Shown: positions 42,961 to 58,850, counted from the stretch's first letter. The stretch: DNA of 64,000 nucleotides from Prochlorococcus sp. AG-355-B18 (GCA_003280965.1 QCDI01000007.1:1-64000), one strand, 5' to 3'. A program made the numbers and translations. The notes: a model not told the origin generated them from the sequence alone.

Positions 42961-42978
42961 TTCATTTACGGGTTCTTC

Positions 42979-43084: not shown

Positions 43085-43126
43085 TGGTCGTGATATGGTC
43101 GTGAAATTAATTTTTCATGGTCGTGA
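43085..43126 (+). repeat. Three TGGTCGTGA repeats (probable integrase arm sites)
   Basis: Copies at 43085, 43096 and 43118. Confidence 0.8.
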
Positions 43127-43139
43127 AGAAAAAATGCCG

Positions 43140-43241: not shown

Positions 43242-43640
43242 TTAGATTTCCTCCTCTTCAGCAAATTTTGCTTCCAAATACTCTTTGGCATCTTTAGGGA
43301 CTTTCATGGCATTTTCTTCAAAGTCTTCTTTTGACTTGATAAAGAAGACATACCTTGCCCTATTAAAAACTGTGTTCCAATGTGCTGCGTTATCAAGTTC
43401 AGGAAATTCTTGAAATAAGTAAAGCATTTCGATCAAAACTTTTTCTTGTGCTTTTCTTACTTTCAATGCTCTCTTTGCATTACTTCGTATGTGACTGACG
43501 AAGTGCTTGGCATCATCAGATAACAGTTCCCACTTGGAATTTGCCAACTTGATGTTGGCATTATTTGAAGCAGTTTGGTTGGAAATAAAGTAATCCAGTT
43601 TTTTGTACTCTGGAATTTTTAACTCTTGAGAACTATCCAT
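43242..43640 (-). CDS. Hypothetical protein, 132 aa
   Basis: TAATG coupling to the upstream ORF; GGGGAGG RBS. Confidence 0.75.
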   Translation of the reverse strand: MDSSQELKIPEYKKLDYFISNQTASNNANIKLANSKWELLSDDAKHFVSHIRSNAKRALKVRKAQEKVLIEMLYLFQEFPELDNAAHWNTVFNRARYVFFIKSKEDFEENAMKVPKDAKEYLEAKFAEEEEI

Positions 43641-44236
43641 TACTCTTCCTCCCCTGCAATGAATAAATCCTTCTCAGTTTCAAATGACATGATTGTGGTT
43701 TGAAGATTGCTCCATTGTCCAAGATAAGCATTTCCTCCACGCCATTTAATGTCATCTGGGGAAAGTACAAATTTTAATTTGTTTCTCTTAACAACTTTTA
43801 CCCAATCTTCAGTCATAACCGTGTCGTAAGGACTAAATTCAAATCCATTTTTTGCGACATCATTTCGATTTGCATCCCCATAGTTCTGATTGCAGTAAAT
43901 AAGAGGACATTCATCTATGTAAAATGCCGTGATTAAATTTGGAATACTTGGATGAAGTAAAGGATGATAGATTTTTGGATGTCTCATCATCATTTTTCCA
44001 GAATCAAAAATTCTTATCTTTTCTGAGTCTCCAAATCCTTTTGAAGGTTTCTCTTTATAAAAGAAACTGGATTCATGTTCCAATGCTTCGTGCAGAATAG
44101 GTGCTTGAATATTATCGACCCATTCATTGACGCAATTTCTATAGGTCAAATTTCCGTCATTGATCTTTTTCAGAATTTCTCCATGCTCATTATTGGCATG
44201 AAATTTTTCCAACTTTTCAGTAATAGTTGTTGTCAT
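43640..44236 (-). CDS. Hypothetical protein, 198 aa
   Basis: AAGGAGGGG RBS; consensus promoter upstream. Confidence 0.78.
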   Translation of the reverse strand: MTTTITEKLEKFHANNEHGEILKKINDGNLTYRNCVNEWVDNIQAPILHEALEHESSFFYKEKPSKGFGDSEKIRIFDSGKMMMRHPKIYHPLLHPSIPNLITAFYIDECPLIYCNQNYGDANRNDVAKNGFEFSPYDTVMTEDWVKVVKRNKLKFVLSPDDIKWRGGNAYLGQWSNLQTTIMSFETEKDLFIAGEEE

Positions 44237-44309
44237 TAGTTCCCCTCCTTTTAGGGATTAAGTGAATTTAGATTTAAAAAATAAATGGAATATTTTTATC
44301 TTTTCTTTG

Positions 44310-44333
44310 AGTTGACCCTTTCGGGTCTATTCA
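44310..44333 (-). repeat. 24-bp leader hairpin motif, copy 1
   Basis: Plus strand AGTTGACCCTTTCGGGTCTATTCA; 23/24 identical to 55701-55724. Confidence 0.85.
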
Positions 44334-44429
44334 GTTGTGTTGGGTCTGAACTTCATGTTCAGGGGTTTAAAATCTGTCCCAATTAGATCACTTAAAGCGT
44401 GGTTACCAACCCTTGCTTTTTATACATAA

Positions 44430-44458
44430 ATTATACATTAAATCAATGGACTTGTCAA
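44430..44458 (-). promoter_or_regulatory. Consensus sigma70 promoter
   Basis: TTGACA (44458-44453), 17-bp spacer, TATAAT (44435-44430). Confidence 0.85.
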
Positions 44459-44640
44459 CCCATAACTCAAGTTATAGCAATTAATGTCAGGGAATCTCAA
44501 CCTCTTTCAGGAGGGTTCAGAATGTAAAAAAATTGGCGAAAAAAATTTCCATATTTCAGGTATTTTTTATCGTTCTTGGGTAACACTTTGTAGGTTAGGG
44601 AAGTTGGTCGTTTTATATACTGCGAGATCTTATGAACGAA

Positions 44641-44787
44641 TCACTTTTTGAAGATCTGTTTCTTTAACTTTGGATCCATATAAACAACTTCAATCAGTCT
44701 GTTCAAAGTGTTGAGTATATCCATTCTTGAAAATTTAGAAATATCCTTGAGCATTTCTAGGCGGATTGGGTTTAGTTTTGGTTGCAT
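44641..44787 (-). CDS. Small protein, 48 aa (not in ORF track)
   Basis: MQPKLNPIRLEMLKDISKFSRMDILNTLNRLIEVVYMDPKLKKQIFKK*; starts 3 bp after the upstream stop. Confidence 0.55.
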   Translation of the reverse strand: MQPKLNPIRLEMLKDISKFSRMDILNTLNRLIEVVYMDPKLKKQIFKK

Positions 44788-44790
44788 TGT

Positions 44791-44991
44791 CTAAATATTT
44801 TCTAATTGAGCGTTCTTCCTCAGGTTGTAAATCATATTGGTGCATTTTTTGTATATATCTGCCCTCTTATAGACTCCTAGGTCATCCATAAGGAACTGTT
44901 CTATCTTCTCGTACTTAGGAACCTCATCCTTTTTGTAGGACATCTGGAATCTATTCTGTTTGATCTTTACTGCTGGCATTTTTCTATGCAA
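44791..44991 (-). CDS. Small basic protein, possibly RHH-like
   Basis: Strand-helix-helix pattern (RFQMSY/KYEKIEQFL/RADIYKK); start uncertain. Confidence 0.55.
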   Translation of the reverse strand: MHRKMPAVKIKQNRFQMSYKKDEVPKYEKIEQFLMDDLGVYKRADIYKKCTNMIYNLRKNAQLENI

Positions 44992-45049
44992 TTTAGGTGT
45001 ACTAAATATTTATTCCGATTTTTCTTTCGCTTCTTATCGTTCGGTATTT

Positions 45050-45185
45050 TGTAGGCAAAGGTCACATGAGATAGAAAGCATACTTATATTTTTTTGATGC
45101 TTTTTAATGGGTTTTAACCCTTTGCCCTTCGGGCAAATTTCCTTCGGAACAACCTTTTGGTTAGTTATTTCTGTTTTTGCCTACA
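45050..45185. other. Multi-hairpin structured non-coding element
   Basis: 10-bp closing stem TGTAGGCAAA/TTTGCCTACA enclosing five inverted repeats. Confidence 0.7.
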
Positions 45186-45351
45186 GTAATCTTTCAACCG
45201 ATACAAAGGTATCTATACAAGTTATGTATTTGACTTATACATATATTGGGAGACCAAAACATATTGCTATGACTTGATTCAACATGATTAAACCCCACAT
45301 CATTTGATTTAATTGCCGTAAAAAGTTTATTTTTGCCTTACTGATTGAAAA

Positions 45352-45780
45352 TTATTGCTGCTTTACTAAAGGATAAACGTCTTTACATTTTGATTTTTCG
45401 TTTTGATAATCTTTGATAGCAGTATCCCATTTTGATAAATCTGCTTCTTTCCCAGAAATATATAATTCCATTTGTGCCGAATAGGTTGCTGCTTCAATCC
45501 GACTATTGAATGAAGAATTACAAAAAAGAATACTTCCAAATTTTTCATAGTCAGTAAAATCCCTATTCGCTGCATATTCAGCATTTGCCCTTTTCTTATC
45601 TAATGCTTTATATTCCAAATCCTCAATACTAGGTTTTGGTCGGAGTAAGACTGCTTTATAGTCTAAATCCTCAACTCGGAGTAAGGATTGGTTACCTTGT
45701 GCATTTAGATATGAAAAAAGTGAAACACAAATAAGAACAACAGCAAATACACTAATTAACCAAGTGTTAGTTTTATCCAT
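45352..45780 (-). CDS. Membrane-anchored hypothetical protein
   Basis: N-terminal TM; internal repeat EDLDYKA/EDLEYKA. Confidence 0.72.
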   Translation of the reverse strand: MDKTNTWLISVFAVVLICVSLFSYLNAQGNQSLLRVEDLDYKAVLLRPKPSIEDLEYKALDKKRANAEYAANRDFTDYEKFGSILFCNSSFNSRIEAATYSAQMELYISGKEADLSKWDTAIKDYQNEKSKCKDVYPLVKQQ

Positions 45781-45939
45781 TTATTTTTGCCTGACTGACT
45801 GAAAATAAACTTTATCTGCTGGATACCTTGCCTTAACAAGGTCTTCTAGATGCTTTCTATCGGCAGTATCACTCTCAACTTCAACAGTATGAGATCTTTT
45901 TTGAAAATCTACATATCGGACTTTTGCGATTATCTTCAT
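45781..45939 (-). CDS. Small protein, 52 aa (not in ORF track)
   Basis: MKIIAKVRYVDFQKRSHTVEVESDTADRKHLEDLVKARYPADKVYFQSVRQK*; ATGA overlap upstream, abuts the downstream ATG. Confidence 0.72.
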   Translation of the reverse strand: MKIIAKVRYVDFQKRSHTVEVESDTADRKHLEDLVKARYPADKVYFQSVRQK

Positions 45940-46166
45940 TTGATTTTGTCCTCAAATTCTTTGAAGGATGATTGCATTTGTCCTTTATTTTCTACTGGAT
46001 CATCTTTGTCTAGACCTCTGATCTTTCTCCATCTGGAGTACATATAACCAAGATATATTCCTTGCATGAAATTCTTTGCACCATTTTCAAGCAAATTTGT
46101 AGAAAATTTATCGTTAAATCTTCCACTTTCTAATAATTCTTTTTTCCAATCTATTTTTTCTGTCAT
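45936..46166 (-). CDS. Hypothetical protein, 76 aa
   Basis: ATGA overlap with the resolvase stop. Confidence 0.72.
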   Translation of the reverse strand: MTEKIDWKKELLESGRFNDKFSTNLLENGAKNFMQGIYLGYMYSRWRKIRGLDKDDPVENKGQMQSSFKEFEDKIK

Positions 46167-46741
46167 ACCGCTACTTCCTGTTTAACTATTCTTTGCACCA
46201 TTGAACGACTCATGCCTAATGATTTGGCAATAGTTCCTAATCCTTCGCCTTGAGATTTCTTTTTCATTACTTCAGCAACTTGAAAGTCATCATATTTGCG
46301 TTTTCTTCCAAATTTTACTCCTCTACTTAAGGCAACTGCTCTACCTTCTGAAGTTCTGGACTTAATTTGTGAGAGTTCTTGCTCTGCTGCATATCCAAGA
46401 ATTGAAACTATTAGACCAACTATCTCTTTTGACATGGTTGTTGTATCAAGTCTCTTATCTAAAGTGCGAACATTAACTCCTTTCTTGAGAAGTTTGTCTA
46501 ATTCGATTTGCATAAGAAGAGAAGTTCTTCCAAGTCTTGATAATTCAGAAAGAATAAGAAGATCTCCTTCTTCTAAAACTTCTAATAATTTTGATAATTC
46601 TTCTCTATCTCCATAACTCGAAGTTCCAGTAATCTTATCGCCATATAAAACTTCAACCCCTGCATCCTTTAATGCACGGATCTGTCTTTCTTGATCTTGA
46701 TGATCTGTAGAACATCTCCAATATCCGTAAATTGTATTCAT
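46163..46741 (-). CDS. Small serine recombinase (resolvase/invertase)
   Basis: YWRCST catalytic Ser, LSRLGR, GVKFGRK, C-terminal HTH. Confidence 0.93.
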   Translation of the reverse strand: MNTIYGYWRCSTDHQDQERQIRALKDAGVEVLYGDKITGTSSYGDREELSKLLEVLEEGDLLILSELSRLGRTSLLMQIELDKLLKKGVNVRTLDKRLDTTTMSKEIVGLIVSILGYAAEQELSQIKSRTSEGRAVALSRGVKFGRKRKYDDFQVAEVMKKKSQGEGLGTIAKSLGMSRSMVQRIVKQEVAV

Positions 46742-46757
46742 TTTCTGGGGGTAAATC

Positions 46758-46861
46758 TGATATTAATATCATAATATTCCGATACAGTATTTCAATACAC
46801 TCAAACCCCAATATTTGTGTTTCTTTACATGGTATATCGAATTTCTTAATTTTCGATACAC
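46758..46861. promoter_or_regulatory. Putative res site
   Basis: Palindrome TGATATTAATATCA; repeated C(G/A)ATACA half-sites; inverted repeat GTATATCGAA...TTCGATACAC directly upstream of the resolvase. Confidence 0.55.
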
Positions 46862-46941
46862 TTTTGCCCCTTCAGGATCGCCTGTAAGGGCATTGAATTT
46901 TTATTTGCTTCCCAAAGTACCTTCGATTAATCTATTATTAC

Positions 46942-46957
46942 TAATACAGATGTACTA
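46942..46957. promoter_or_regulatory. Putative cyanobacterial LexA box
   Basis: TAATACAGATGTACTA, one mismatch to AGTAC-N4-GTACT, 6 bp before an ATG. Confidence 0.65.
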
Positions 46958-46963
46958 CTAATA

Positions 46964-47209
46964 ATGATTGAAGAAGAAGAGTGGAGTTATCTCAATGATT
47001 GGGAAGAAGATCAACTAAGAAAGAAGAAAACAAAGATTTGTATGTGTTGCGATCACTTTCGTTATGCCTGTACTGTTCAATGCGTGACTCTTTTAACTTG
47101 TCCTGTCCATCAGAAATTAATACCTCAAGGAGATCATCTAATAAAAGGATGCAAATACTGGGTAAAAAGAAGAGAACTTCGTGAAGGTTGGTGTCCCGAA
47201 GTTGCTTAA
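46964..47209 (+). CDS. Cys-rich small protein
   Basis: CMCCDHF...TCPVH...GCKYW; possible metal binding. Confidence 0.72.
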   Translation: MIEEEEWSYLNDWEEDQLRKKKTKICMCCDHFRYACTVQCVTLLTCPVHQKLIPQGDHLIKGCKYWVKRRELREGWCPEVA

Positions 47210-47287
47210 TTTAGTTAATTATTTTTTTAATCTTTTCCAGATTCCATTTATCAAATTTATATAATAATAAAACAGAGTTTTTTCAAA

Positions 47288-47575
47288 ATGGCAAAAGGTT
47301 ATTGGTTATCAACAGGATCTATTAAAGATGGTGAAGGAATGCAACCTTATTTAAAAGCGTTAAAAGATTGGTTACCTTCTGTTAATGGAGCATTTTTTGT
47401 TAGAGATTTGGCAACTATCGAGAAGGAAAGTACTCTTGGACATCTAACAGTAATTATTGAATTTCCATCAAAAGAAGATGCAGTTTCTGCATATGAATCA
47501 GAGGAATATCAAAAGATGATTCCCTTAAGAACTCCATATTCTGATCTAACTCTTACCATCTTTGAGGGAGTTTAA
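47288..47575 (+). CDS. DUF1330 family protein
   Basis: IIEFPSKEDAVSAYESEEYQ. Confidence 0.85.
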   Translation: MAKGYWLSTGSIKDGEGMQPYLKALKDWLPSVNGAFFVRDLATIEKESTLGHLTVIIEFPSKEDAVSAYESEEYQKMIPLRTPYSDLTLTIFEGV

Positions 47576-47579
47576 CGAT

Positions 47580-48443
47580 TCATAAAACTAAATTTTCTAA
47601 ATCTTTTAACTCTTTATCTGAAGTTAAAATTACGCTTGTTGAATTTGCAAGTGCTTCAGCAGATTTAGTAAATCCACTTTTTGCTACTACAACAGAATGA
47701 GTGCCTTTCCAATAAATCATACCTGCTGCGATTTCTTGAACTGCTTTATTCCCTACTGCTTTGGCAAAACACTTACATTGAATACATACTCTTACATCTT
47801 CAATAGAAGCAATTAAATCTACGCCTTGATCTCCAGTTGTTGAAGTATCTTCAACTTCCCATCCAGCATTTTCTAGTATTGTTTTGCAATATTGTTCATA
47901 CTCAATTCCATCCATTGAATCAATATCTTTATTACTTGCTCCTTGAGAATCAACTTTGTCACATACTTCATCTATTTCATCTTCTATCCAATCTTCTAAA
48001 TCTAAGTCAATATAAAGATCGTAAAAATCTCCATAAACATCTATTTTTTCTTGTATAACTTCATCTATAAAATATCGAATACCAGTTACTTTTTTCTTCC
48101 CGAAATCATAATCCAACGCCCATCCTTTATCTTCTTCTACTCCATACTGATTTTTCTTCAAATATTTTTTTCTATCAATAGTTAAAGCATATTTGTGTTT
48201 TTTTATAAGTTTTCTGCATTTCTTTTTAAATTTATCAATTTCTTTTGCTTCTTCTTTCTTTTTTTCTTCTTTCTTTAATGCTGTAATTTTTGCATTTTTA
48301 ATACGAAGTTTATTAGTTCTAATTAATGCAAAAACGAATAAAAAAAAGATAAATAAAATCCCAACAATTCCACCTGCTGTTTCTGCTCTACTTCCTGCAA
48401 ATATTGTATTTCCATTAGCGTCTCTTAATATGACTTGATTCAT
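47580..48443 (-). CDS. Membrane-anchored Mrr-like restriction endonuclease
   Basis: N-terminal TM; C-terminal GIEYE...GDQGVDL...IQCK...VGNKAVQE. Confidence 0.85.
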   Translation of the reverse strand: MNQVILRDANGNTIFAGSRAETAGGIVGILFIFFLFVFALIRTNKLRIKNAKITALKKEEKKKEEAKEIDKFKKKCRKLIKKHKYALTIDRKKYLKKNQYGVEEDKGWALDYDFGKKKVTGIRYFIDEVIQEKIDVYGDFYDLYIDLDLEDWIEDEIDEVCDKVDSQGASNKDIDSMDGIEYEQYCKTILENAGWEVEDTSTTGDQGVDLIASIEDVRVCIQCKCFAKAVGNKAVQEIAAGMIYWKGTHSVVVAKSGFTKSAEALANSTSVILTSDKELKDLENLVL

Positions 48444-48503
48444 TTATTTAAAAGATATGTCAATTAGTATAAGATTAACTTTAAATTTCTAGAAAATTTA
48501 TAA

Positions 48504-49112
48504 ATGGAAGGAAGTGTTTATGTTCTAACCAATCCTGCAATGCCTAATATGGTCAAGATTGGTAAGACAACAAGAGATGTAGAACTTCGACTTGCTGATC
48601 TATATTCAACTGGAGTTCCTCTTCCTTTTGAATGTGAGTATGCAGCGAAAGTTAAAGATGTAGATAAGACAGAAAAAGCATTTCATACAGCATTTGAACC
48701 AAGCAGAGTTAATCCAAAAAGAGAATTTTTCAATATCAATCCAGAACAGGCAATTGCTGTTTTATCACTAATGGCGATTGAAGATGTGACTCCAAGTGTT
48801 CAAGACGAAGCAAAAAAAATTGATATAGAAGCATCTGCCTCTGCTGAGAAATTTAAAAAGAAAAGAAGACCTACTATTAATTACTTTGAGATGGGTTTAA
48901 AAGAAGGAGATATTTTAAAATTCGGGAGAAATGAAGAATCCTGCACAGTCTTAAATGGAAGGCAAGTTACCTATAAAGGGGAACCTTGGTTTTTATCAAA
49001 TTTAACTAATAAGTTATTAGATAGAACTGGTCCTATGGATGGATCGCCTTATTGGTATTTTAACGGTAAAAACCTTAAAGATTTATACAACGAAACTTAT
49101 TCAATAGATTGA
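48504..49112 (+). CDS. GIY-YIG T5orf172-family nuclease with RAMA-like C-terminus
   Basis: VYVLTNPAMP..VKIGKT, TGVPLPF, REFF; C-terminal GSPYWYFNGKNL. Confidence 0.8.
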   Translation: MEGSVYVLTNPAMPNMVKIGKTTRDVELRLADLYSTGVPLPFECEYAAKVKDVDKTEKAFHTAFEPSRVNPKREFFNINPEQAIAVLSLMAIEDVTPSVQDEAKKIDIEASASAEKFKKKRRPTINYFEMGLKEGDILKFGRNEESCTVLNGRQVTYKGEPWFLSNLTNKLLDRTGPMDGSPYWYFNGKNLKDLYNETYSID

Positions 49113-49200
49113 TTTTCAATATTTGGTGGCGATAAGAGTGCAAATGAAAAATTAAGTATATAAATTAAATTTTTCGATGTTTCTAATCAGGAACAGAATT

Positions 49201-49221
49201 ATGACTAAAGTGTTTAGTCAT
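49201..49221. promoter_or_regulatory. Perfect inverted repeat upstream of the helicase operon
   Basis: ATGACTAAA-GTG-TTTAGTCAT. Confidence 0.5.
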
Positions 49222-49267
49222 TACTATTATTTTAGTGATACTCTTACAATCATAAAAACTAAAAAAT

Positions 49268-49858
49268 ATGAACCTTCTTTTAACTATTGCTGCTGTTGCG
49301 AATCCAGTTTTAACAGCATTACTGACTATTTTAGTTTTCCTAGAGTCTAAAAAATCAAAAAAACAAATAGAAGATATTCAAAATTCAATCAATACTGGTA
49401 ATCAATCAATTGTTACCTCAGTTGTGAAACAGAAAGATGATTTTACAAAGTTAGCAGAAAGTTTTGAAGCATTATCAAAAGATACAGAAGAGTCAGCAAA
49501 GAGTTTTGTAGAAATATCAAATGCATTAACAAAAAGTTCTGCAGTTAGTAAAGAAGCACTTGGAAAAGTAACTTCAGGACTAGAAAATCATGCCACTTTG
49601 GTAACGGGAATGATTGATACACTTACTGCAAAAGTTACAAATACAAGTGCTGATTCTATTAAAGGTATTACTGATAAAGTTTCAGAAGCAATGGATAATA
49701 TTAACGATGCTGTTTCTAAAATCGAAACCTCTCAAAATAGTCTAAAAGATAACTTAACTGAATCAATTTCAAAACTTTCTGAAAGTACTGAGAATACGAA
49801 TAAATCTATCAGTTCTCTTAAAGAAGCACTCAAAAATATGGTTTCTCTCAATCAATAA
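49268..49858 (+). CDS. N-terminal TM plus long S/T/E/K-rich coiled-coil protein
   Basis: Hydrophobic residues 1-25, then amphipathic helical repeats. Confidence 0.8.
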   Translation: MNLLLTIAAVANPVLTALLTILVFLESKKSKKQIEDIQNSINTGNQSIVTSVVKQKDDFTKLAESFEALSKDTEESAKSFVEISNALTKSSAVSKEALGKVTSGLENHATLVTGMIDTLTAKVTNTSADSIKGITDKVSEAMDNINDAVSKIETSQNSLKDNLTESISKLSESTENTNKSISSLKEALKNMVSLNQ

Positions 49859-50629
49859 ATGGAAGATTCTCTTAGCAAACAATATTTACTCTATTTAAGA
49901 GATATGAGTAGAAAGGTAGTATATGGTGCTTCTGGTTCTGCTGGAGATTATTCAAAAGTTTTAATTGGTGGTTCAAAGCAAAAAAATGCTAGAAAATTTC
50001 CAAGGATGACAGATATAAAATTAAAAAAAATGATGGGTAATCCAGAAGGATTTAGAAGACAACAGGATCAAGAGAATATTGGTAATGGTATTTTTTGTGG
50101 GATCGGACTTATTGCGGGTACATATAGTAAAAAAGTCCGTGGTCAAAAATCTCTTCGTATGATTGCAGCACCTGCAATATACGGTCAAATACTCTTTGAA
50201 GAAGATAGTGAGGGTGAAAGTGAGATTTCAGAATGGATAGTTAATTATGATATCGCTTCAGCGTTGATTACTCGGAACGCTAATGAAGAGGATGAGGCAT
50301 ATGCTGCTTTTAGCGAAGATGAGGATGATATAACAGGCAACAAGTTAGTCGATGAGATCGAAACTGAATTAGATAAATATGAGAATCCTAGTATTGAATT
50401 AATAGAAGAACTATCTATGAAATTCATAGATGGATTTTCTAAACTTACTGAGACAGAATTGGAAATTACTGAAGAACCTCTTTCTACAGTTAATTCTGCA
50501 ATAAAAGCAAAAGACAATAATATAAGAAAATTTTTCTTTTGTCCCGGGGATTGGATTTTTTTCGCTCCAATACCTGAGGGACTTAGTACATATCAAGCAT
50601 TAAATGATCTTTCTAAAGAAATAACATAA
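49859..50629 (+). CDS. Unknown protein, possibly a detached DUF4011-like helicase N-terminal domain
   Basis: ATG abuts the upstream stop; TAATG coupling to the helicase. Confidence 0.7.
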   Translation: MEDSLSKQYLLYLRDMSRKVVYGASGSAGDYSKVLIGGSKQKNARKFPRMTDIKLKKMMGNPEGFRRQQDQENIGNGIFCGIGLIAGTYSKKVRGQKSLRMIAAPAIYGQILFEEDSEGESEISEWIVNYDIASALITRNANEEDEAYAAFSEDEDDITGNKLVDEIETELDKYENPSIELIEELSMKFIDGFSKLTETELEITEEPLSTVNSAIKAKDNNIRKFFFCPGDWIFFAPIPEGLSTYQALNDLSKEIT

Positions 50630-53217
50630 TGAATCAGACAACCCTTTCAAGACTTTTAGAATCAGTTTTTTCAGGAGGTGAATTTTCTCCTCAATATACA
50701 AATATAAAGAATGACGATATTAATAAAGTTCTAGAAAGATTACCATTTTCATTATCAAAGTCCCAAAGAGATGCAATATTTAGAGCATTAAAAAATGATA
50801 TTTCCTATATTCAAGGACCCCCGGGAACAGGGAAATCTTTTACTATTTCTGCGCTTGCTATTGCAGGAAGAGAATTAGGACTAAAAGTTTTAGTAGCATC
50901 ACAAAAAACACCAGCAGTTGATATTGTTCATAAAAAATTAACTGATGTGTTAGGCATTTCCTCATGTTTATATCTTGCTAATTCTTATGAGAGAAGAAAA
51001 AATATGAGAGCAGTAATTCAAGATTTGGTAAGTCAATCTCTTGATTTAATGAATCAACTTGCTGAGCGTGAAGAGAGGATTTTATCCGACAAGGTAAACA
51101 GTCTTATTGAAGAAAGACTCGATTATGCTAAAAAAATTAGAATTTATGAATCAGAATTAAAAAATTTCTACACATTAAATATTGATGCAGTCGATCACAG
51201 AGAAAATCTAGAAAAAAATTGGAATGTTAAAGAAGAAATAATAAAAAACATAAAATTAATTTTTGATAAAAATGGAATTATAAAAATTAGAAGATTAGTA
51301 AGTGAATGCGAAAAGATAAGAGATAAAGCAAGAACAAATTCTGGTCAGGTATCTTTATCTGAGGCAGTTAAAATCAAAGTTATTTCTAAGGCAATCGTAG
51401 ATGAGTTGAATTTTGATAATAATGAATATTTGAAACATAAAGAAGAACTTCTTAAGAGTGTAATTAAATATTCTGAGAGTCTGGCAAAAGCAGAAGAAAT
51501 AAAAAATAAAGTAAAAGTTCAACCTCTTGAACAAATAAGAAATTCATTTAATTGGCAAAATGAAAAGATTTATACAAAAGATATTAGTGAATCTATATTG
51601 TCTGAATATTTATCGAAAAGAAATTCAGTCAAGGCAAATAAACTTTTACAAGATAAAAAATATAAAAAATCGTTAGATATTTTTTGTAAGAGATTAAGCG
51701 CAAGAAATAGGAGAAGAATTAAAAAATATAATTCAGAAATTGACTTTAATTGCTTGTTTGAAGTCTTCCAAGTAATTATGGGAGAAATTAAATCGCTACA
51801 TGCTTTCTTGCCATTTGAAGAAGAGTTATTTGATTTGTTGATATTAGATGAAGCATCCCAAGTAAACTTGGCGGAGATATTTCCAGTTCTTTATAGAGCA
51901 AAAAGATTTTGTATTGTTGGTGATCATAAGCAACTAGGAATAAAGGCGGCAGGAGGAATGTTTATAAGTAAGGTTTATGAAAAACTTACTTGGGAGAAAT
52001 ACTTTTCTTCACTTCCTAAATATCCAGTAAGTTACAAAAAAGCAGAAGAGCGAGATTTATTAGTTTCAAGATCATCAATTCTAAATTTAATACGAAATCC
52101 AAGTAATCCCATCACAGCACCACCGATATTGCTTAACGAACATTTTCGTTCTTTACCAATGCTCGCTGAGTTTACAAGTGAACAATTTTATAAAGATGAT
52201 ACTCAAGATGCTGGATTAAGAATAATGACTGCACTTCCAGATAAAAAAGCAATTAATGCTTTTTGTGATGTCCAAGTATCTACAAAAAGAGAAGATGCAC
52301 CAAGTACATTAAACAAAAATAAAAAGTCTCAATTAAACAAAGGGGAAGTTGATAAATCATTTGAAATTATCCAATCAATTGTTAAAAAGAAACCTATTAA
52401 AAAACTTACTGAACAAGTATTTAAAATTCCAGATTTAGTCGATCAAAAAATATCAGTAGGTGTCATTTCCTTCACTCGTGAACAAGTCAGATATATGAAA
52501 AGTGAGGCGGAAAAAAAATTAACTGATGAAGAAGTTGAGTCAATTAATTTAATGATTGGTACTCCAGAGGAATTTCAAGGTAATGAGAGAGATGTAATGA
52601 TTTTTGCTCCCTCAATTGATCCAGATCAAAAAAGATCTAAGGGGCATATGGAAGATCCCAATAGATTTAATGTCGCAACAAGTAGAGCGAGATATTTCAC
52701 ATATTTTGTTCATGGAGCAATACCTTCAAATATGGTTCTTATGCAGAAAATGCTCACAAAAATGGGGCAAGAAAGAAATGAAATCATTCAAAATAAAACT
52801 GGGTTTTTGCCAATAGGATGGACATTAAATGTATCCGATTGCGAAAGTGAATTTGAATTGCGAGTATTTGATGTTTTAAGTAAATTAATTGAAAAAGAAT
52901 TTCCTGATAGACTTTTCCTTTATAACCAAGTAAGAACCTGTGGTTATAGATTAGATTTTGTGATTTACGAAAAATCTACTAAAACAACAATCGGAATTGA
53001 AGTTGACGGGAAACATCATTTTTATGCAGATGATGAAACATATACAGATGATCACCTTGAAAGAGCAAATTCTTTAAAGAGAGGCGGTTGGATTATTAAA
53101 TATCTTCCATATTGGGATTGGTACGATGATGGATGGTTACCTTATGATCATCCACCTGTAGAAGAATTAAGGAATTTTGTCAGACAATTTTTTAATAATA
53201 CTTCTGAAAATCAATAA
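50629..53217 (+). CDS. SF1 Upf1/DNA2-like helicase with C-terminal Vsr/DUF559-like nuclease
   Basis: QGPPGTGKS, DEASQ, VGDHKQL, EHFRS, FQGNERD, RFNVATSRAR; ESEFE...YRLDFV...IEVDG..H. Confidence 0.92.
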   Translation: MNQTTLSRLLESVFSGGEFSPQYTNIKNDDINKVLERLPFSLSKSQRDAIFRALKNDISYIQGPPGTGKSFTISALAIAGRELGLKVLVASQKTPAVDIVHKKLTDVLGISSCLYLANSYERRKNMRAVIQDLVSQSLDLMNQLAEREERILSDKVNSLIEERLDYAKKIRIYESELKNFYTLNIDAVDHRENLEKNWNVKEEIIKNIKLIFDKNGIIKIRRLVSECEKIRDKARTNSGQVSLSEAVKIKVISKAIVDELNFDNNEYLKHKEELLKSVIKYSESLAKAEEIKNKVKVQPLEQIRNSFNWQNEKIYTKDISESILSEYLSKRNSVKANKLLQDKKYKKSLDIFCKRLSARNRRRIKKYNSEIDFNCLFEVFQVIMGEIKSLHAFLPFEEELFDLLILDEASQVNLAEIFPVLYRAKRFCIVGDHKQLGIKAAGGMFISKVYEKLTWEKYFSSLPKYPVSYKKAEERDLLVSRSSILNLIRNPSNPITAPPILLNEHFRSLPMLAEFTSEQFYKDDTQDAGLRIMTALPDKKAINAFCDVQVSTKREDAPSTLNKNKKSQLNKGEVDKSFEIIQSIVKKKPIKKLTEQVFKIPDLVDQKISVGVISFTREQVRYMKSEAEKKLTDEEVESINLMIGTPEEFQGNERDVMIFAPSIDPDQKRSKGHMEDPNRFNVATSRARYFTYFVHGAIPSNMVLMQKMLTKMGQERNEIIQNKTGFLPIGWTLNVSDCESEFELRVFDVLSKLIEKEFPDRLFLYNQVRTCGYRLDFVIYEKSTKTTIGIEVDGKHHFYADDETYTDDHLERANSLKRGGWIIKYLPYWDWYDDGWLPYDHPPVEELRNFVRQFFNNTSENQ

Positions 53218-53296
53218 TTAAATTTTTGATCAGTTTCAACTTAGAAGGTCTCAAAAAAATTAAATTGTATTACATTAGTAAAAATATCTTTTAACA

Positions 53297-53671
53297 ATGC
53301 CTAGTAAGCATGGCAACAAAATTTATAAACAGATTTTGTTAGATCCGGGAATGTATATTCTATTAGAAAAACTTGCTGGAGACCAAAAAAAAGTATCCTC
53401 TCTTATAAGAAAAGTAGTATATGAATGGATAGAAACACAAGTTGATAAATCAGAATTTCAAGCAGCAAAAGCACTTGATGATGCTTTATGGCAACAATCT
53501 ATCCTAAACAGAATTGATGGAAGAAAGAAAAATAATCAAAAGTCGATAATTGATAGTTCTAAAAATGAAAAAATTAAAAGCAATGAGAAAAAAGAAAATA
53601 ATTTCCAATATTTAATAGATCCTGAAATTATGATAAAAAATCTCAAAAATATAATCAAAAAAGATAGGTGA
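53297..53671 (+). CDS. Hypothetical protein, RHH-like N-terminus
   Basis: YKQILLDP...LEKLA...VSSLIRKVVYEWI. Confidence 0.65.
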   Translation: MPSKHGNKIYKQILLDPGMYILLEKLAGDQKKVSSLIRKVVYEWIETQVDKSEFQAAKALDDALWQQSILNRIDGRKKNNQKSIIDSSKNEKIKSNEKKENNFQYLIDPEIMIKNLKNIIKKDR

Positions 53672-53791
53672 TTAGTGAATTAGATAGGAATTGATCCTAA
53701 TGCCAAAGTCAAAGTTGATGATGAGATGAAAAATTATTTAACTAAGCATCGCGAGCAATTTAGAGAAATCTTAGAGAATTAAACATTAAAT

Positions 53792-53857
53792 AAGAGGGCA
53801 TGAGTTTGCCCTCTTCGAGTCTTATGCACCTCGCTGTCCACAAAGTCGATGAAGTGC
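53792..53857 (-). ncRNA. Candidate structured RNA or terminator pair
   Basis: Hairpins AAGAGGGCA/TGCCCTCTT and GCACCTC/GAAGTGC in an ORF-free gap. Confidence 0.35.
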
Positions 53858-53999
53858 TTTTGACTCCTGAATTATTTCTACTCCTGCTGAATAGAAAAAG
53901 ATAGTCGTACAAACCATAAAGCACTAATACTCGGGTATTAATACCCTATGAATTTCAAGAAAAAAGGAGGAGAATATAGGTATAGATCTAGGAGGTCTT

Positions 54000-54182
54000 A
54001 TGAAACTATTCAATCAATTCAATGTTCTTCCAAGATACCTAACTGCATTTAATTATGCAGGGTTAAACTTGAACGAGACTCCAAAAGAATTAGAGCAATG
54101 TCCTCAAGAATTCCAAAACTTTTGGGATAAGGAATGTAGAGAACATCCGACTAACCAGAATTGTTTAATTTATTGCGACTGA
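54000..54182 (+). CDS. Small protein with CP12-like C-terminal Cys loop
   Basis: AGGAGG RBS; ends CREHPTNQNCLIYCD. Confidence 0.7.
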   Translation: MKLFNQFNVLPRYLTAFNYAGLNLNETPKELEQCPQEFQNFWDKECREHPTNQNCLIYCD

Positions 54183-54184
54183 GT

Positions 54185-55465
54185 TTAAATTATTAATCCT
54201 TGGTTAACCAAAGTTTTTGACCACCATTCCATAAATTCTTTTCTTTTATCTAAAAGAGTTGAACGATCATAATGACCGCGAGTGCCATTTAGATGTCCCA
54301 TTCTTCCCAATTGGCGATCAATAACCTCATAATCAAAATCAGATTTTTCTAATGCTGAAGTTGTAATTACACTTCGCCATTGATGAGCAGATTGTTTGTC
54401 TTTCCAACCAAGATTTTTGAAATGGTCATTGATAGTTTCAGTTCCAATATGATGAACATTTTTGCTTTTTAATGAATAAAAACAATATTTTTGCCATCCT
54501 GTTATCTCTCTTACCTTTGCCATAAGTTTATTAATTTCAGGAGTCGAAGGAATCACATGATCGTTTAATAAATCATCTTTTTTTCTTTTCAATCCTGATG
54601 TTTGCGAAGGGATAATCCACTCATCATTTTCAGAGTTATACCAATCCCATTCAAGGCATGAAATAACGCCTGTCCTGATGCACATTAGTATATGTGCTTT
54701 AGTTGCTAGATCAGTAATTATTGAAGCATTACAGGCGTTCTCATTGACCGATTGAATGAACTCTGGAAGCATACCCCATGAATTTTTTGTAATTCTTTTT
54801 GCAAAAGTTTTATCTGATATTTTTCTTTGATTTCCTGTTTCCCATTGGAACTTTTTGAATACTGGATTTTGATTTGGTCTTATGTAAGTTTCATCTTCTG
54901 CGTAATTAAAAATCTGACTTAAAAGTTGCCTACATCTTGTTAATTGAACAGGAGAATTATGAAAAAGAGTTTTCAACATATTGGAAATATATTTCCTTCC
55001 ATCTTTTTCAATTTCTAAATCAGAAATTAGTTTTTCATCTCCAATAAATTTGAGCATCTGGTTTATTTTGTTTGATCTATCTTGATATGTTCTTTCTTTA
55101 TTCTTCGGTTTAAAAACATCCTCAAGAAATTCAAGTGCAACATCCTTGAATGTTTTTTCACTTACTTTTTCTTCTTCTTCTTTGCCAAATAATTTTGGAT
55201 CTTTATTATTTTCTTTGCTCCAACTTTTAATCGAATACCATTTTTCAAGAGCATCTTGTACTAGAACTTCTCTTTCAAAAACTCCTATTGAAATTGCAAT
55301 TTTTTTACCAGAAGCATTAAAAGGAAATTTCATTCTTCCTTGAAAATATCTTGATTTACCTCTCTTAATTACTGATAAACCACTATTAGGAGAAACAGGA
55401 TAAGATTTATCCTCTTTTAATTTCCTAATCTTTGAATCTGTATTAGCGAAAAAAGTAGAAGTCAT
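54185..55465 (-). CDS. P4-like tyrosine integrase
   Basis: CIRTG, HQWR, GHYDRS...RKEFMEWW; start at 55465 supported by AGGAGG RBS and TAATG overlap with AlpA. Confidence 0.92.
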   Translation of the reverse strand: MTSTFFANTDSKIRKLKEDKSYPVSPNSGLSVIKRGKSRYFQGRMKFPFNASGKKIAISIGVFEREVLVQDALEKWYSIKSWSKENNKDPKLFGKEEEEKVSEKTFKDVALEFLEDVFKPKNKERTYQDRSNKINQMLKFIGDEKLISDLEIEKDGRKYISNMLKTLFHNSPVQLTRCRQLLSQIFNYAEDETYIRPNQNPVFKKFQWETGNQRKISDKTFAKRITKNSWGMLPEFIQSVNENACNASIITDLATKAHILMCIRTGVISCLEWDWYNSENDEWIIPSQTSGLKRKKDDLLNDHVIPSTPEINKLMAKVREITGWQKYCFYSLKSKNVHHIGTETINDHFKNLGWKDKQSAHQWRSVITTSALEKSDFDYEVIDRQLGRMGHLNGTRGHYDRSTLLDKRKEFMEWWSKTLVNQGLII

Positions 55466-55674
55466 TACTGCCATCCTCCTCTTTTGCCTTGTAACCATTC
55501 CACTATTTGGAACACCCAAAAACCTACTCTGCCTTCAGATAGTTTTCTCTTTGGAGGAAATGTTTTCCCTGCTGTTCTGTTTATGGTTGAAGTTGAAATT
55601 CCACACTCTGCACAAGCACCAGAAATGGACAAATGATGACGACCCATATCGCCTTTCACATTGAATTGATACAT
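55465..55674 (-). CDS. AlpA-family excisionase/regulator
   Basis: CGISTSTINR...FPPKRKLSEGRVGFWVFQIVEWL; start moved downstream of the promoter. Confidence 0.85.
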   Translation of the reverse strand: MYQFNVKGDMGRHHLSISGACAECGISTSTINRTAGKTFPPKRKLSEGRVGFWVFQIVEWLQGKRGGWQ

Positions 55675-55700
55675 GAATAAATTAATTACAAACGGACTTA

Positions 55701-55724
55701 AGTTGACCCTTTTGGGTCTATTCA
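55701..55724 (-). repeat. 24-bp leader hairpin motif, copy 2
   Basis: Plus strand AGTTGACCCTTTTGGGTCTATTCA. Confidence 0.85.
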
Positions 55725-55795
55725 ATTTTTTGGTCAATATTGCTTTCTTAAATTCGGGCGTATCTACCTGATCTTGCCTTCCTTTATACCCTAAT

Positions 55796-55824
55796 ATTAT
55801 AGCACTAGATTGTAGTCGTGTCAA
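55796..55824 (-). promoter_or_regulatory. Consensus sigma70 promoter for alpA-int
   Basis: TTGACA (55824-55819), 17-bp spacer, TATAAT (55801-55796), with extended TGn. Confidence 0.85.
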
Positions 55825-55849
55825 CTGTTCTGGGGGAATTCGACCCCAA

Positions 55850-55873
55850 AAAATGACCTCTAAAATGACCTCT
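55850..55873 (+). repeat. 12-bp tandem repeat AAAATGACCTCT, two copies
   Basis: Read directly from sequence. Confidence 0.7.
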
Positions 55874-55901
55874 GGAATGGGTCTTTCAAATAAAAAGTTC
55901 A

Positions 55902-55921
55902 TGGTCGTGAAATGGTCGTGA
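55902..55921 (+). repeat. Two TGGTCGTGA repeats (probable integrase arm sites)
   Basis: Copies at 55902 and 55913. Confidence 0.8.
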
Positions 55922-55992
55922 AATATATCTTTTTCTTCGATTTCTTATATCAGGTTCAGTCAGGCACTATCACGAAATATCAACCCGACTTT

Positions 55993-56005
55993 CGCCCGGG
56001 GAGTT
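55993..56005 (+). repeat. attR core, duplicated tRNA-Asn 3' end
   Basis: CGCCCGGGGAGTT. Confidence 0.92.
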
Positions 56006-56027
56006 TATAAATACTAAAAAGTTATCC

Positions 56028-56055
56028 AAAGTCACCCTAATAAGGTGACTTTTTT
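56028..56055 (+). terminator. Displaced native tRNA-Asn terminator
   Basis: AAAGTCACC-7nt-GGTGACTTT followed by Ts, just after attR. Confidence 0.8.
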
Positions 56056-56339
56056 ACTTCTTTGCCCCCTTTCCTATCAAATAGTGGTTAGCCGAAAATA
56101 TAATCAAGTATATTTGATATAATATTAAGAACAGTATTTAGAACATTAAAAATCATCAATTAATAAAAATCTTAAAAATGATTAATTATTATAAAAAATG
56201 TTTTTTTGGAACAGTAATCAGAACATTTACTTAATTCTCCATAAAAATGAAAAAATAAGCTCTTTGATTGATCTTCAATTTTAAAATTAAGACATATTTT
56301 TGTTTGTATCGTTTGAGTTAATACACCATTAAGCAGATT

Positions 56340-56699
56340 CTAGTCATCCCACATATCCTTTTTATCTTGATCCAAATTATTCCTTTCAAGTAATTCTATT
56401 CTTTGCTTTTGAGAATCTATTTCTGTTTCAATTACGTTTTTATCGTCAATGTATTTTGTTTGTATTTCTAAGATATTTATTTCAAATTGTTCTCCAAAAA
56501 AATCTGACATTTCTCTCCATGCTTCCATTTCCTCTTCTTTGCCAATAGTATCGTTTATCTGATGAGAAATAATTTCTAATACATATTGTTTAAGTTCTTG
56601 ATGACTCATCGATTCAACTTTTTTTTGAATGTAAAGTTCTTTAAGAGTTTCTAGTTGTTTTTTTGATAAGTCAGAATAGATAATAGACTTCTTTTTCAT
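56340..56699 (-). CDS. Hypothetical protein
   Basis: Acidic 119-aa ORF ending DMWDD. Confidence 0.7.
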   Translation of the reverse strand: MKKKSIIYSDLSKKQLETLKELYIQKKVESMSHQELKQYVLEIISHQINDTIGKEEEMEAWREMSDFFGEQFEINILEIQTKYIDDKNVIETEIDSQKQRIELLERNNLDQDKKDMWDD

Positions 56700-57102
56700 A
56701 GATAATTAAATTTTTTTCAATATAGACAAAATTAAGAATTTAAACATTTTGGAGAAATTAAAAAATTTTAAACTTAGTTAATTCTTATTTAAAAATAGAA
56801 AATCTCCAATAAATACAATTTTTTTGAAAACTTATAATGGCAATCTGATTTAGATATTCTTTCAATTTGAACCATTATTTGTTTCTAATAATCCTTTGAT
56901 TATTAAGAAAAAGTAAATAGAATCGAAAGAAATTATAAAATTTAAACTAATTTAAAATTACAATTTCTTTCTAATCCCCTGTAATTATTGAATTATTTGA
57001 TAAAACAATTGATAAAATTGTTTACACAAATTCAGCAATCTCTATAAATTCTTGAGAGAATCGTATTACCAAAACTTTATTTTAATTTAATAGTTTATAA
57101 AT

Positions 57103-57885
57103 ATGAAAATTTCAATCCTCTTAATCGAAGATGATCGTGATATGCGTGATTTAGTGGCAGGGCATTTAGAACATTCTGGATTCGATGTTCAAAAAGCTGA
57201 AGATGGAATTAAAGGACAAGCTTTAGCTCTTCAATACTCACCTGATTTAATACTTTTAGATTTAATGTTGCCAAGTGTTGATGGATTAACTTTATGCCAG
57301 CGACTTAGAAGGGATGAAAGAACATCAAATATCCCAATTTTGATGATAACTGCACTAGGTGGCCTTAAAGATAAAGTGACTGGGTTTAATTCAGGAGCAG
57401 ATGATTACATTACAAAACCATTTGATCTAGAAGAGTTACATGTGCGCATAAAAGCATTATTGAGGAGAACAAACAGAGCACAATTGAATTCTAGTAACCA
57501 GCAAGAAATACTAAATTATGGCCCTTTGACTCTTGTTCCTGAGAGATTTGAAGCTATCTGGTTTGAATCACCTGTTAGATTAACGCATCTTGAGTTTGAA
57601 TTGCTCCATTGCCTTTTGCAGAGGCATGGTCAAACTGTATCGCCAGCATTAATTCTTAAAGAAGTATGGGGATATGAACCTGATGATGATATTGAGACAA
57701 TAAGAGTTCATATTAGACACTTACGCACTAAGCTAGAGCCGGATCCACGTAAACCTTTATACATAAAAACTGTATATGGCGCGGGATATTGTCTTGAGCT
57801 ACCCATCGGTTCTCAAGTCGAAACTGCAAGGCAAGAGTTTATTCAAGCAAGAAATCCGAATTTGATAAATTCTGCTGTTGATTGA
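57103..57885 (+). CDS. rpaA: OmpR-family response regulator RpaA
   Basis: [37 protein letters not shown]. Confidence 0.9.
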
Positions 57886-57887
57886 TT

Positions 57888-58850
57888 TTATGTATGTTGC
57901 ATTGAAATTTTTAAAAAAGTAACTTCCCAAGCTAACCTAGGTTGAATCTTTTGTTTTAAGAGGTATTTTAAATTTTCAAGCTTTTTTACTACATCAATGT
58001 TTTTTGTCTTTCTCCACCAAATATTTTGAATTAAATTGACTAAATAAATCTGTTGATAAATCTCTAATTTTTCAGATATTAACTTTGAGATCTCTAATAT
58101 TTCAAGACTACTTTTTATTGGAGAATCTAATTTATTTATAATTTCATCTGAAAAATCATTCCAAATTTCAATATTTTTCAATAATTGATTTGGAGATCCA
58201 TTTGCAGAGTTTATTAAATCATCAAATTTAAAATTTGAATTTCTATTTAATTTGGAAGTATCAAAATATTCTTTTAAAATTGACTTTAATTGTTTACTAG
58301 AAAAAGATCGAAATCTGACGATTTGACATCTTGAGATGATCGTTTCTAAGAGAAGGTTTAATTTAGACGTTAGTAAAATAAAAATCCCGTTACTAGGTTC
58401 TTCTAAGGTTTTTAAAAGGCAATTTGAGGCTGCTTCGTTTAAGAGGTGTGCATCAATAATCAAAACAACTTTTTTTTCTGAGTTTATTGATTTTTGACTA
58501 AGAAAAGTTTTGATATTACGTATTTGAGAAATTTTAATAATCTCTGATTCACTTTTTATTTTTTTTTCAAGATCGAAACTTCCTAAACTTTTTGCTGCCA
58601 AAAGAGAATCAGGTTCAATAATTAAAAAATCAGGATGGTTATTGTTTGTAATTCTCTCTTCAACATTTCCGCTTGCTGAAGAATGTTTGAAAATCTCTTT
58701 TATAAATTGAAGAGCAGTTTGCTTTTTACCTAATCCTTCAGCACCATAAAATATATAACCATTTGCCAATGATTTGTTTTTAATTATGTTTTTAAGAAAG
58801 GTATTGACTTCTTCATTCAAGAAAAAATTATTTTTTTTAACTTCAATCAT
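57888..58850 (-). CDS. holB: DNA polymerase III delta' subunit
   Basis: [23 protein letters not shown]; downstream of tmk. Confidence 0.9.

Follow-up and report, generated by a model that had tools for sequence, protein, structure and literature searches.

A membrane protein paired with a split Hhe-like helicase-nuclease in a Prochlorococcus island: a conserved, uncatalogued cassette with a predicted anti-phage role

A stretch of 64,000 nucleotides (nt) from Prochlorococcus sp. AG-355-B18 (GCA_003280965.1 QCDI01000007.1:1-64000; the whole stretch is hereafter called the window) carries three adjacent genes, here named A, B and C, which form one conserved cassette. Comparison of sequences and predicted structures indicates that C is a helicase fused to a nuclease, B the detached N-terminal domain of that same enzyme, and A a membrane protein that accompanies it. 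The cassette is likely to be a membrane-tethered, uncatalogued relative of the single-gene defence protein Hhe, with a predicted anti-phage role. An earlier note on this DNA had suggested that the locus encodes a new three-gene anti-phage system consisting of a transmembrane coiled coil, an unknown protein and a Upf1-like helicase-Vsr nuclease. The suggestion stands insofar as the genes form a conserved unit that no catalogue lists and that probably serves defence; it needs revision in that the cassette appears to be a variant of the Hhe/CnuH-like kind and consists in effect of two components. To judge from the sequences, what is new here is the pairing of an Hhe/CnuH-type helicase-nuclease with a membrane partner, this kind of helicase-nuclease being already known.

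Composition and conservation of the cassette

The stop codon of A (TAA, 49856–49858) is followed directly by the start codon of B (ATG, 49859), and the stop of B overlaps the start of C as TAATG (50627–50631), so that the open reading frames (ORFs; Table 1) and their junctions bear out the translational coupling ascribed to them before. Pieces of the cassette are contained in metatranscriptome contigs from four runs, while some of its parts are uncovered. One contig bridges the A/B junction (49762–50070, 1 difference) and one the B/C junction (50532–50751, 0 differences). These two contigs are a weak hint that the cassette is expressed; against this it must be considered that contigs from RNA libraries may stem from contaminating DNA.

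Gene A is located upstream of B in all five loci from the genome collection, in all four split loci from metagenomes (among 80 loci listed) and in each of the seven B-bearing genomes of an order-level sample of 401. Once duplicates are removed, the split loci number 12, including that of the window, and the arrangement A-B-C is found in all of them. In other lineages B and C are fused into a single gene, and both fused loci that could be read (L008 and L093) possess an upstream ORF with an N-terminal transmembrane helix and a helical tail, which ends 5–17 nt before the fused gene. Three-gene synteny and the existence of a dedicated membrane partner, both proposed in the earlier note, are therefore seen as a membrane gene in 12 of 12 split and 2 of 2 fused loci. 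No match to the A profile was obtained in 68 more distant helicase-nuclease loci (encoding forms of 900 aa and of 1,500–1,800 aa), five of which (L010, L046, L051, L069 and L080) contain upstream ORFs with an N-terminal hydrophobic stretch and no A-profile match. The distribution of the cassette is sparse and scattered, with B present in 7 of the 401 genomes and in 5 of the 37 genera of the order.

By its profile matches and its structural model, protein C is a Upf1-like superfamily 1B (SF1B) helicase fused to a Vsr/RAP-type nuclease. The Pfam models AAA_11, AAA_12 and RAP match it above their cut-offs (31.9 versus 24.2 bits for RAP), and MTES_1575, at 32.5 bits, stays just under its own. The AlphaFold2 model of C, with a mean pLDDT (predicted score in the local distance difference test) of 87.2, is composed of RecA1, a helical insertion, RecA2 and a C-terminal alpha/beta domain (residues 740–856). 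The insertion splits RecA1 into two halves, and its pLDDT by block is mostly 86–95. When the model was used as a Foldseek query, the best matches were to senataxin/Sen1 (5e-18), Aquarius, Upf1, IGHMBP2 and Dna2. Motifs III, V and VI, like the two Walker motifs, are intact, and all 30 aligned relatives have them in identical or nearly identical form. Nuclease residue D776 and the (E/D)xDG motif are present in 29 of the 30 sequences, the sole exception being the viral-contig form L093. A PDB sequence search with the nuclease domain returned nothing significant. Pfam, AlphaFold2 and Foldseek thus agree on the Upf1-like helicase-Vsr nuclease identity that had been given to C at the outset, and the intact helicase motifs and long helical insertion noted at the same time are upheld by the alignment (Walker A, Walker B, III, V and VI in 30/30) and by the model (residues ~120–380 all-helical), respectively.

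For protein B of the window, scans against Pfam, PADLOC, NCBIfam and PHROGs gave no match. Its family comprises 128 proteins according to a word-index search and 82 cluster representatives according to an exhaustive profile search. Seventeen of the 82 representatives are 1,093–1,158 aa long, and in all of eight further ones, of 429–894 aa, the B domain runs into AAA_11. The relationship is clearest in the Persephonella protein P0232 (1105 aa), residues 10–261 of which are matched by the B profile (hhalign probability 98.3%, E 1.2e-14) and residues 268–1099 by C (35% identity). Since the B profile and C align to consecutive parts of one fused protein, B and C represent a split gene; on this sequence evidence B is the N-terminal domain, here detached, of the C helicase-nuclease, which in other phyla is a single protein of ~1,100 aa. 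Such fused proteins are encoded by Persephonella, Candidatus Magnetobacterium bavaricum and Thermodesulfobium, where they are annotated merely as 'AAA domain-containing protein' or 'RAP domain protein'. Either the split in cyanobacteria is a fission or the single gene of the other lineages is a fusion. As B is the helicase's own domain, the cassette effectively has two components, and the 'unknown protein' of the earlier note can no longer be counted as a separate third one.

The model of B has a mean pLDDT of 69.6. Foldseek searches with it against the PDB and searches of BFVD gave nothing at E <= 0.001, the ESM Atlas gave no usable match, a PDB sequence search gave nothing significant, and VIA-align wide found generic helical bundles at best (Z 5.8). 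These fold searches do not establish a new fold. A tblastn search of plasmids with the fused protein produced helicase-only matches, none of them over the B domain, and the search of viral contigs yielded a single locus, L093. This locus (positions 3606–7258 of a 180-kb IMG/VR contig classified as viral) has the fused two-gene form with a nuclease devoid of the conserved D and ExDG, and to judge from the sequence it may be a phage-borne, nuclease-dead copy. Its cassette is surrounded by a GIY-YIG-like gene, repeat proteins, DUF1281_C proteins and a photolyase.

On borderline evidence, the B domain is probably DUF4011-like and divergent. Part of the link comes through P0289, a fused form that is truncated and is matched by the B profile with a probability of 98.2%. 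This protein scores 28.6 bits against the Pfam model of DUF4011 (PF13195; gathering threshold 22.2) over the C-terminal 60 positions of the model, and in BLASTP it matches a bona fide DUF4011 protein from metagenome locus L057 (Pfam E 1e-39) with an E of 2e-4. Furthermore, a broad alignment of the B family and an alignment of DUF4011 were matched by hhalign over 78 columns (probability 50.5%, E 1.6e-4), with the invariant B residues G83, P105 and N129 falling on the invariant G133, P150 and N179 of DUF4011. A 62-sequence B alignment, compared with the N-termini of 22 long helicase-nucleases, reached an hhalign probability of only 15.5% in the same motif region, and the 22 proteins proved to have no Pfam DUF4011 match. 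Several results weigh against the assignment: B of the window matches no Pfam model, DUF4011 included; DUF4011 was matched by only one of 12 B-family members scanned; a narrower B profile compared with one DUF4011 sequence gave an hhalign probability of 0.3%; and the first ~100 positions of the DUF4011 model find no counterpart in the B family. If B is indeed DUF4011-like, B-C would repeat the domain order of Hhe in compact form. In L057 itself, DUF4011 has a gene of its own (3320–3976, 218 aa) that lies just ahead of the gene for a 1,510-aa helicase; this is an independent case of a split-off N-terminal domain, as with B.

Protein A has one predicted transmembrane helix, with a mean Kyte-Doolittle hydropathy of 2.32 over 19 aa as opposed to no more than 0.52 in the rest of A. 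No lysine or arginine precedes the helix and four are found in the 15 aa that follow it; because basic residues come only after the helix, an N-out/C-in topology with a cytoplasmic tail is predicted. The same layout recurs in all 13 A-type proteins compared (11 cyanobacterial and the two of the fused loci), each with a single N-terminal hydrophobic segment (mean hydropathy over 19 aa, 1.96–3.10) that no basic residue precedes and that is followed by 2–5 of them within 15 aa. The tail of A is free of proline and displays a hydrophobic periodicity of 3.55–3.60 residues (power 128–238 versus shuffle maxima of 44–53, standard deviation 10–14), as expected of a long amphipathic helix. Of the 'transmembrane coiled coil' described earlier, the single N-terminal transmembrane helix is thus retained, while the 3.6-residue amphipathic periodicity of the tail does not demonstrate a heptad coiled coil. 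A proteins vary greatly in length (79, 86, 136, 154, 194–205 and 252 aa) and always keep the membrane helix and the last ~15 residues, the conserved C-terminal motif being present even in the forms of 79 and 86 aa. The 252-aa A of Synechococcus CS-1329 (L003/L096; L003 5238–5996) contains a near-exact internal duplication of ~57 residues, which shows that the tail grows by tandem duplication. A has weak database matches to ZorA tails, JetC, tape-measure proteins and apolipoproteins, which seem to reflect composition.

Likeness to known defence systems

The defence catalogues scanned were PADLOC 2.0.0 (2023), NCBIfam 20.0 and Pfam. None of their models covers A or B, and none is a full-length defence model over C, for which there are partial helicase matches only; this is what the earlier note had expected when it assigned the locus to no named system. 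A search of the literature on defence helicase-nucleases and on picocyanobacterial defence found no description of the A-B-C cassette.

Hhe, a single-gene DUF4011-helicase-Vsr protein (NF042953, PDLC02194), has the same domain order provided that B is counted with C, its B part being the borderline one. Within C, an SF1 helicase (AAA_11/AAA_12) is followed by an MTES_1575/Vsr-type nuclease in one polypeptide, as in Hhe, and by analogy an ATP-driven translocase coupled to a nuclease is the likely working mode of B-C. The differences are nevertheless considerable. B and C together amount to ~1,118 aa, that is ~60% of the Hhe profiles (1,797–1,911). NF042953 scores 47.2 bits against a cut-off of 2000 (E 5.8e-13) and matches residues 28–117 of C, and the PADLOC profile of 1911 positions (E 7.1e-16) matches residues 43–170, the Walker A region only. 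Finally, Hhe is encoded by a single gene and has no membrane protein, whereas the cassette always includes one and consists of three genes or, in L008 and L093, of two (a gene for the membrane protein and one for the fused B-C).

The nearest architectural analogue is CnuH of the type III-B CoCoNuT systems, in which, according to the part of the published description available to us, a CnuH helicase-Vsr fusion is accompanied by coiled-coil CnuA and by the McrBC proteins CnuB and CnuC (PMC11090510). As described there, CnuH shares with C a Upf1-like helicase, a large helical insertion after Walker A and a Vsr-like PD-(D/E)xK nuclease, and each system also has, as a separate protein, a helical partner in which no further domain can be recognised. 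They differ in the N-terminal domain, which here is B and not a Sul7s-like winged helix-turn-helix, and in the membrane anchor carried by the helical partner here. No homologue of McrB (CnuB) or McrC (CnuC) was found among the 17 window proteins scanned (43640–58850).

The best PADLOC matches of C are to the Mokosh proteins MkoA (3.1e-42) and MkoC (1.9e-30), in the helicase core; the helicase part alone aligns (profile positions 601–1068 of 1112). Mokosh has a PLD-family nuclease, either as MkoB or at the C-terminus of MkoC, whereas in the cassette Pfam detects no PLD match and the nuclease is of the RAP/MTES_1575 kind; Mokosh also has no membrane partner. The single-gene PADLOC candidate PDC-S37 matches RecA2 and the nuclease of C (residues 390–833 versus profile positions 927–1325 of 1550, E 1.7e-28), its first ~900 positions remaining unmatched; with fused B-C relatives the E value reaches 1.2e-41. 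Among NCBIfam models, ProA (109 bits versus a cut-off of 1500) and PLuB match C partially and far below cut-off.

The resemblance to Zorya is one of logic only. In the part of the Zorya study available (PMC11946911), the ZorAB membrane motor has a long cytoplasmic tail that recruits a ZorC/ZorD nuclease; by analogy, the cassette would combine a membrane component whose helical tail, variable in length, would reach into the cytoplasm with a soluble effector of the helicase/nuclease kind. A differs in having one transmembrane helix and no MotA/ExbB domain, no ZorB was found, and the ZorA-model matches of A (best E 1.2e-5, 22 bits) are confined to the tail and look compositional. Kiwa, in the portion of its description that we could consult, likewise joins a membrane protein, KwaA, to a soluble DNA-directed effector, KwaB (10.1101/2023.02.26.530102). 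No KwaA or KwaB model matches the cassette, and the folds and domains are unrelated.

Genomic setting

The cassette resides in an island bounded on one side by a tRNA-Asn gene and on the other by a degenerate copy of its 3' end (Table 1). A repeat, TGGTCGTGAAATGGTCGTGAAAT, of 23–31 nt lies just inside both ends, and the integrase at the distal end (54185–55519) is a tyrosine integrase. The presence of a full tRNA at one end and of a partial tRNA repeat with a site-specific integrase at the other agrees with the layout of the tRNA-seeded islands, or tycheposons, of Prochlorococcus, as given in the available part of 10.1101/2020.12.28.424599. The island is thus best described, from its sequence, as a tRNA-seeded integrative element of tycheposon-like layout; the mobile element inferred earlier is recognisable by the tRNA-Asn gene, the 3'-end repeat, the integrase and the resolvase around the cassette. 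Tandem TGGTCGTGAAAT-type repeats just inside both ends (43085–43127 and 55888–55932) may be recombinase arm sites. A second repeat of 30 nt, with a GACCC...GGGTC hairpin, occurs at 44307–44336 and 55698–55727, and a DUF1330 protein is encoded within the island at 47288–47575.

The two nucleases said to adjoin the cassette are indeed there: an Mrr_cat protein and a T5orf172/GIY-YIG protein, the latter matched nearly end to end by the PADLOC single-gene candidate PDC-S57. The first ~170 residues of the Mrr_cat protein belong to no family, and its gene is divergent from the T5orf172 gene. In Prochlorococcus AG-439-O21 (L002) the cassette occupies the same chromosomal spot, the genes for the response regulator and for DNA polymerase III delta' being again its neighbours, and is preceded by a type I restriction-modification system. 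In Prochlorococcus AG-442-B03 (L098) a 446-aa ORF beside the cassette matches PADLOC C3a124 and no Pfam family, and C overlaps at its 3' end with a same-strand gene for a 149-aa homologue of staphylococcal nuclease (SNase; 7155–7604), possibly an effector that this lineage has added. Downstream of C in the window is a 124-aa ORF (53297–53671), the N-terminus of which, judged by eye, resembles a ribbon-helix-helix domain. It was considered as a fourth core gene and rejected, since among the loci examined a homologue lies directly downstream of C in L006 alone (4111–4383, E 1.4e-19).

The perfect 9-3-9 palindrome reported upstream of A exists at the reported place. It overlaps a -35-like hexamer and a promoter-like match, ATGACT-18-TATTAT, of which one was found versus 2.7 expected. 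Yet the region upstream of A lacks it in each of the 12 other loci inspected, and the AT-rich window (G+C ~30%) contains 20 perfect palindromes with 9-nt arms (loops of 0–8), three of them with a loop of 3, as compared to 3–8 in five block shuffles, so that such palindromes are 2.5–7 times commoner in the window. It is therefore specific to this locus, not exceptional, and the notion of a conserved operator was rejected; the palindrome is a local feature outside the definition of the system and perhaps an operator here.

Table 1. Positions of the cassette genes, their main parts and the surrounding features (window coordinates, except for the last two rows, which refer to the contigs named)
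Feature	Position	Strand	Basis or remark
tRNA-Asn(GTT), proximal island boundary	42888–42961	+	ARAGORN
Resolvase, small serine recombinase, inside island	46163–46741	-	protein scan
C-terminal Mrr_cat restriction-endonuclease domain protein, 287 aa	47580–48443	-	Mrr_cat E 4.2e-23; ZorD-tail and PDC-S02 matches
T5orf172/GIY-YIG protein, 202 aa, PADLOC candidate PDC-S57	48504–49112	+	PDC-S57 E 1.8e-76; T5orf172 E 4.6e-16
Perfect 9-3-9 palindrome ATGACTAAA-GTG-TTTAGTCAT	49201–49221	none	47 nt upstream of A start
Gene A	49268–49858	+	ORF, 196 aa
Predicted transmembrane helix of A, residues 3–25, core ANPV.T.LLT, then KKSKK	49274–49342	+	hydropathy
Conserved C-terminal motif of A, S.K.LKE.L...V.L	49805–49849	+	alignment; L188 invariant
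Gene B	49859–50629	+	ORF, 256 aa
Core of B, residues 74–136, GIFCGxGxxxG ... AAPxIY ... NYD	50078–50266	+	probably DUF4011-like
Gene C	50629–53217	+	ORF, 862 aa
Walker A of C, GPPGTGKS, residues 63–70	50815–50838	+	kept in 30/30 sequences
All-helical insertion of C, residues ~120–380 (~260 aa)	50986–51768	+	DSSP on AlphaFold2 model
Walker B of C, DEAS, residues 407–410	51847–51858	+	D-E-(A/S)-S in 30/30 sequences
C-terminal alpha/beta nuclease domain of C	52846–53196	+	D776, E791-x-D793-G, H.ER...L.R.GW motif; fold elements in model
Integrase, 444 aa, distal island end	54185–55519	-	NCBIfam integrase domain E 7.9e-13; Phage_int_M weak
Degenerate copy of tRNA-Asn 3' end, distal att-like boundary	55986–56008	+	direct repeat, 83% identity to 42943–42965
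Membrane ORF of fused locus L008 (high-G+C metagenome contig)	3426–3992		188 aa
Membrane ORF of fused locus L093 (180-kb IMG/VR contig)	3606–3980		124 aa

Possible mode of action and its alternatives

We give an even chance to the view that the cassette is a defence against phages or other mobile DNA, in which single-pass A holds or controls B-C at the inner face of the membrane. The tail of A would be cytoplasmic and its conserved C-terminal motif would dock the B domain, which would be DUF4011-like and serve in regulation or recognition, as in Hhe. At the entry or metabolism of phage DNA, the helicase would load on a free single-stranded end and translocate 5'-3', and the Vsr-like domain of C would cut the entering or replicating foreign nucleic acid. 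Tethering to the membrane would confine this activity to the site of DNA entry, away from the chromosome, and the outcome would be either direct degradation of the invader or growth arrest. For Hhe, the accessible part of 10.1101/2024.10.10.617714 reports that several DNA-metabolism genes of T7 act as triggers and that one phage gene is toxic only in Hhe-bearing cells; by analogy, these findings suggest activation by phage DNA transactions and make an abortive outcome possible.

Several observations count against this view. No test made supports a physical contact between A and B, the prediction of an A+B complex having given 'no answer' (score 0.00, mark 0.32), which speaks neither for nor against binding. 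The membrane proteins of the fused loci have no detectable similarity to cyanobacterial A (hhalign ~1%); what they share with it is the architecture alone, in two cases. All matches of the cassette to defence models are partial and far below family cut-offs. As to the neighbourhood, the enrichment in defence islands anticipated by the earlier note is discernible in two loci with clear defence neighbours, namely the window, with PDC-S57 and Mrr, and L002, with type I restriction-modification. Among nine other loci inspected with PADLOC (E <= 1e-5), five (L094, L096, L097, L008 and L093) have no convincing neighbour, the sole match in L008 being a weak one to ZacB (2.8e-8); the matches in L095 (mad2, C3a212) and L099 are of doubtful meaning, and the 'mad3' match of L099 is an ordinary ABC-transporter ATPase by Pfam. 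Because several loci are without convincing defence neighbours, the support from defence islands is real but modest.

Membrane-tethered defence by B-C has to be weighed against four other explanations. In abortive infection, which we hold to be unlikely, B-C would be the sensor and A the effector, oligomerising and depolarising or permeabilising the membrane, with the nuclease in a secondary role. A is small (down to 79 aa) and has one transmembrane helix and an amphipathic helix, features that holin-like and pore-forming effectors have too. The toxicity of a phage gene in the presence of Hhe (10.1101/2024.10.10.617714, as far as available) would also fit growth arrest in related enzymes. Nevertheless, the acidic residues of the nuclease are kept in 29 of 30 sequences, which points to the nuclease itself as the effector; the threefold variation in tail length together with the conserved C-terminal motif fits a tether or docking element better than a pore; and PADLOC, Pfam, NCBIfam and PHROGs revealed no homology of A to a known pore-former. 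Action of the Upf1-like helicase and RAP-type nuclease on transcripts of the phage or element rather than on DNA seems to us similarly improbable. The top structural matches of C include the RNA helicases senataxin, Aquarius, Upf1 and IGHMBP2, the RAP model of Pfam is above its cut-off, and PMC11090510, in its available part, makes the case that RNA is the target of CnuH helicases, those of type III-B with their Vsr fusion among them. The same source states that Upf1-like helicases act on single-stranded DNA too. Moreover, the top structural matches include Dna2, which acts on DNA, and Pfam found no RNA-binding accessory domain (CSD, YTH, SmpB-like). Nucleases of the Vsr/DUF559 type are mostly DNA enzymes.

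There is also a small chance, rather less than one in several, that the cassette serves the integrative element itself in replication, transfer processing or the exclusion of competing elements and vesicle-borne DNA. An integrase adjoins it in the window, L095 and L096 (the 446-aa ORF of L098 has no Pfam integrase match), and helicases are among the hallmark replication genes of tycheposons (10.1101/2020.12.28.424599, in its available part). Those helicases, according to the same part, are of the DnaB, VirE and primase kinds and not Upf1-like nuclease fusions. The cassette of L094, L097, L002 and L099 has no adjacent integrase, and replication modules do not usually have a nuclease fusion or a membrane partner. 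Finally, Upf1-like helicases and Vsr-type nucleases do have housekeeping relatives, as the Foldseek matches illustrate, yet a role in housekeeping DNA repair or RNA decay is highly improbable for a cassette that is confined to 7 of the 401 genomes, scattered over 5 of the 37 genera, and that lies inside a tRNA-bounded island.

A more specific form of membrane-tethered defence, which we put forward as a doubtful possibility, is a two-component module distributed over several phyla, in which A, by way of an amphipathic tail adjustable in length, would report the membrane disturbance caused by injection of phage DNA and release or activate the tethered, compact Hhe-like helicase-nuclease, which would then destroy the entering nucleic acid. 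If so, the module would amount to a pared-down Zorya counterpart that needs no motor, and docking and control would be the first role assigned to a DUF4011-like domain. The natural split between B and the helicase offers a handle for dissecting the DUF4011-like N-terminal domain of Hhe-type proteins. If the anchor controls the place or timing of nuclease action, it would be a simple answer to the question of how Hhe/CnuH-type enzymes spare the host chromosome. Prochlorococcus and marine Synechococcus have few recognised defence systems and are under heavy phage pressure; an island-borne mobile module present in picocyanobacteria and a few other phyla would extend the immune repertoire of the main primary producers of the ocean.

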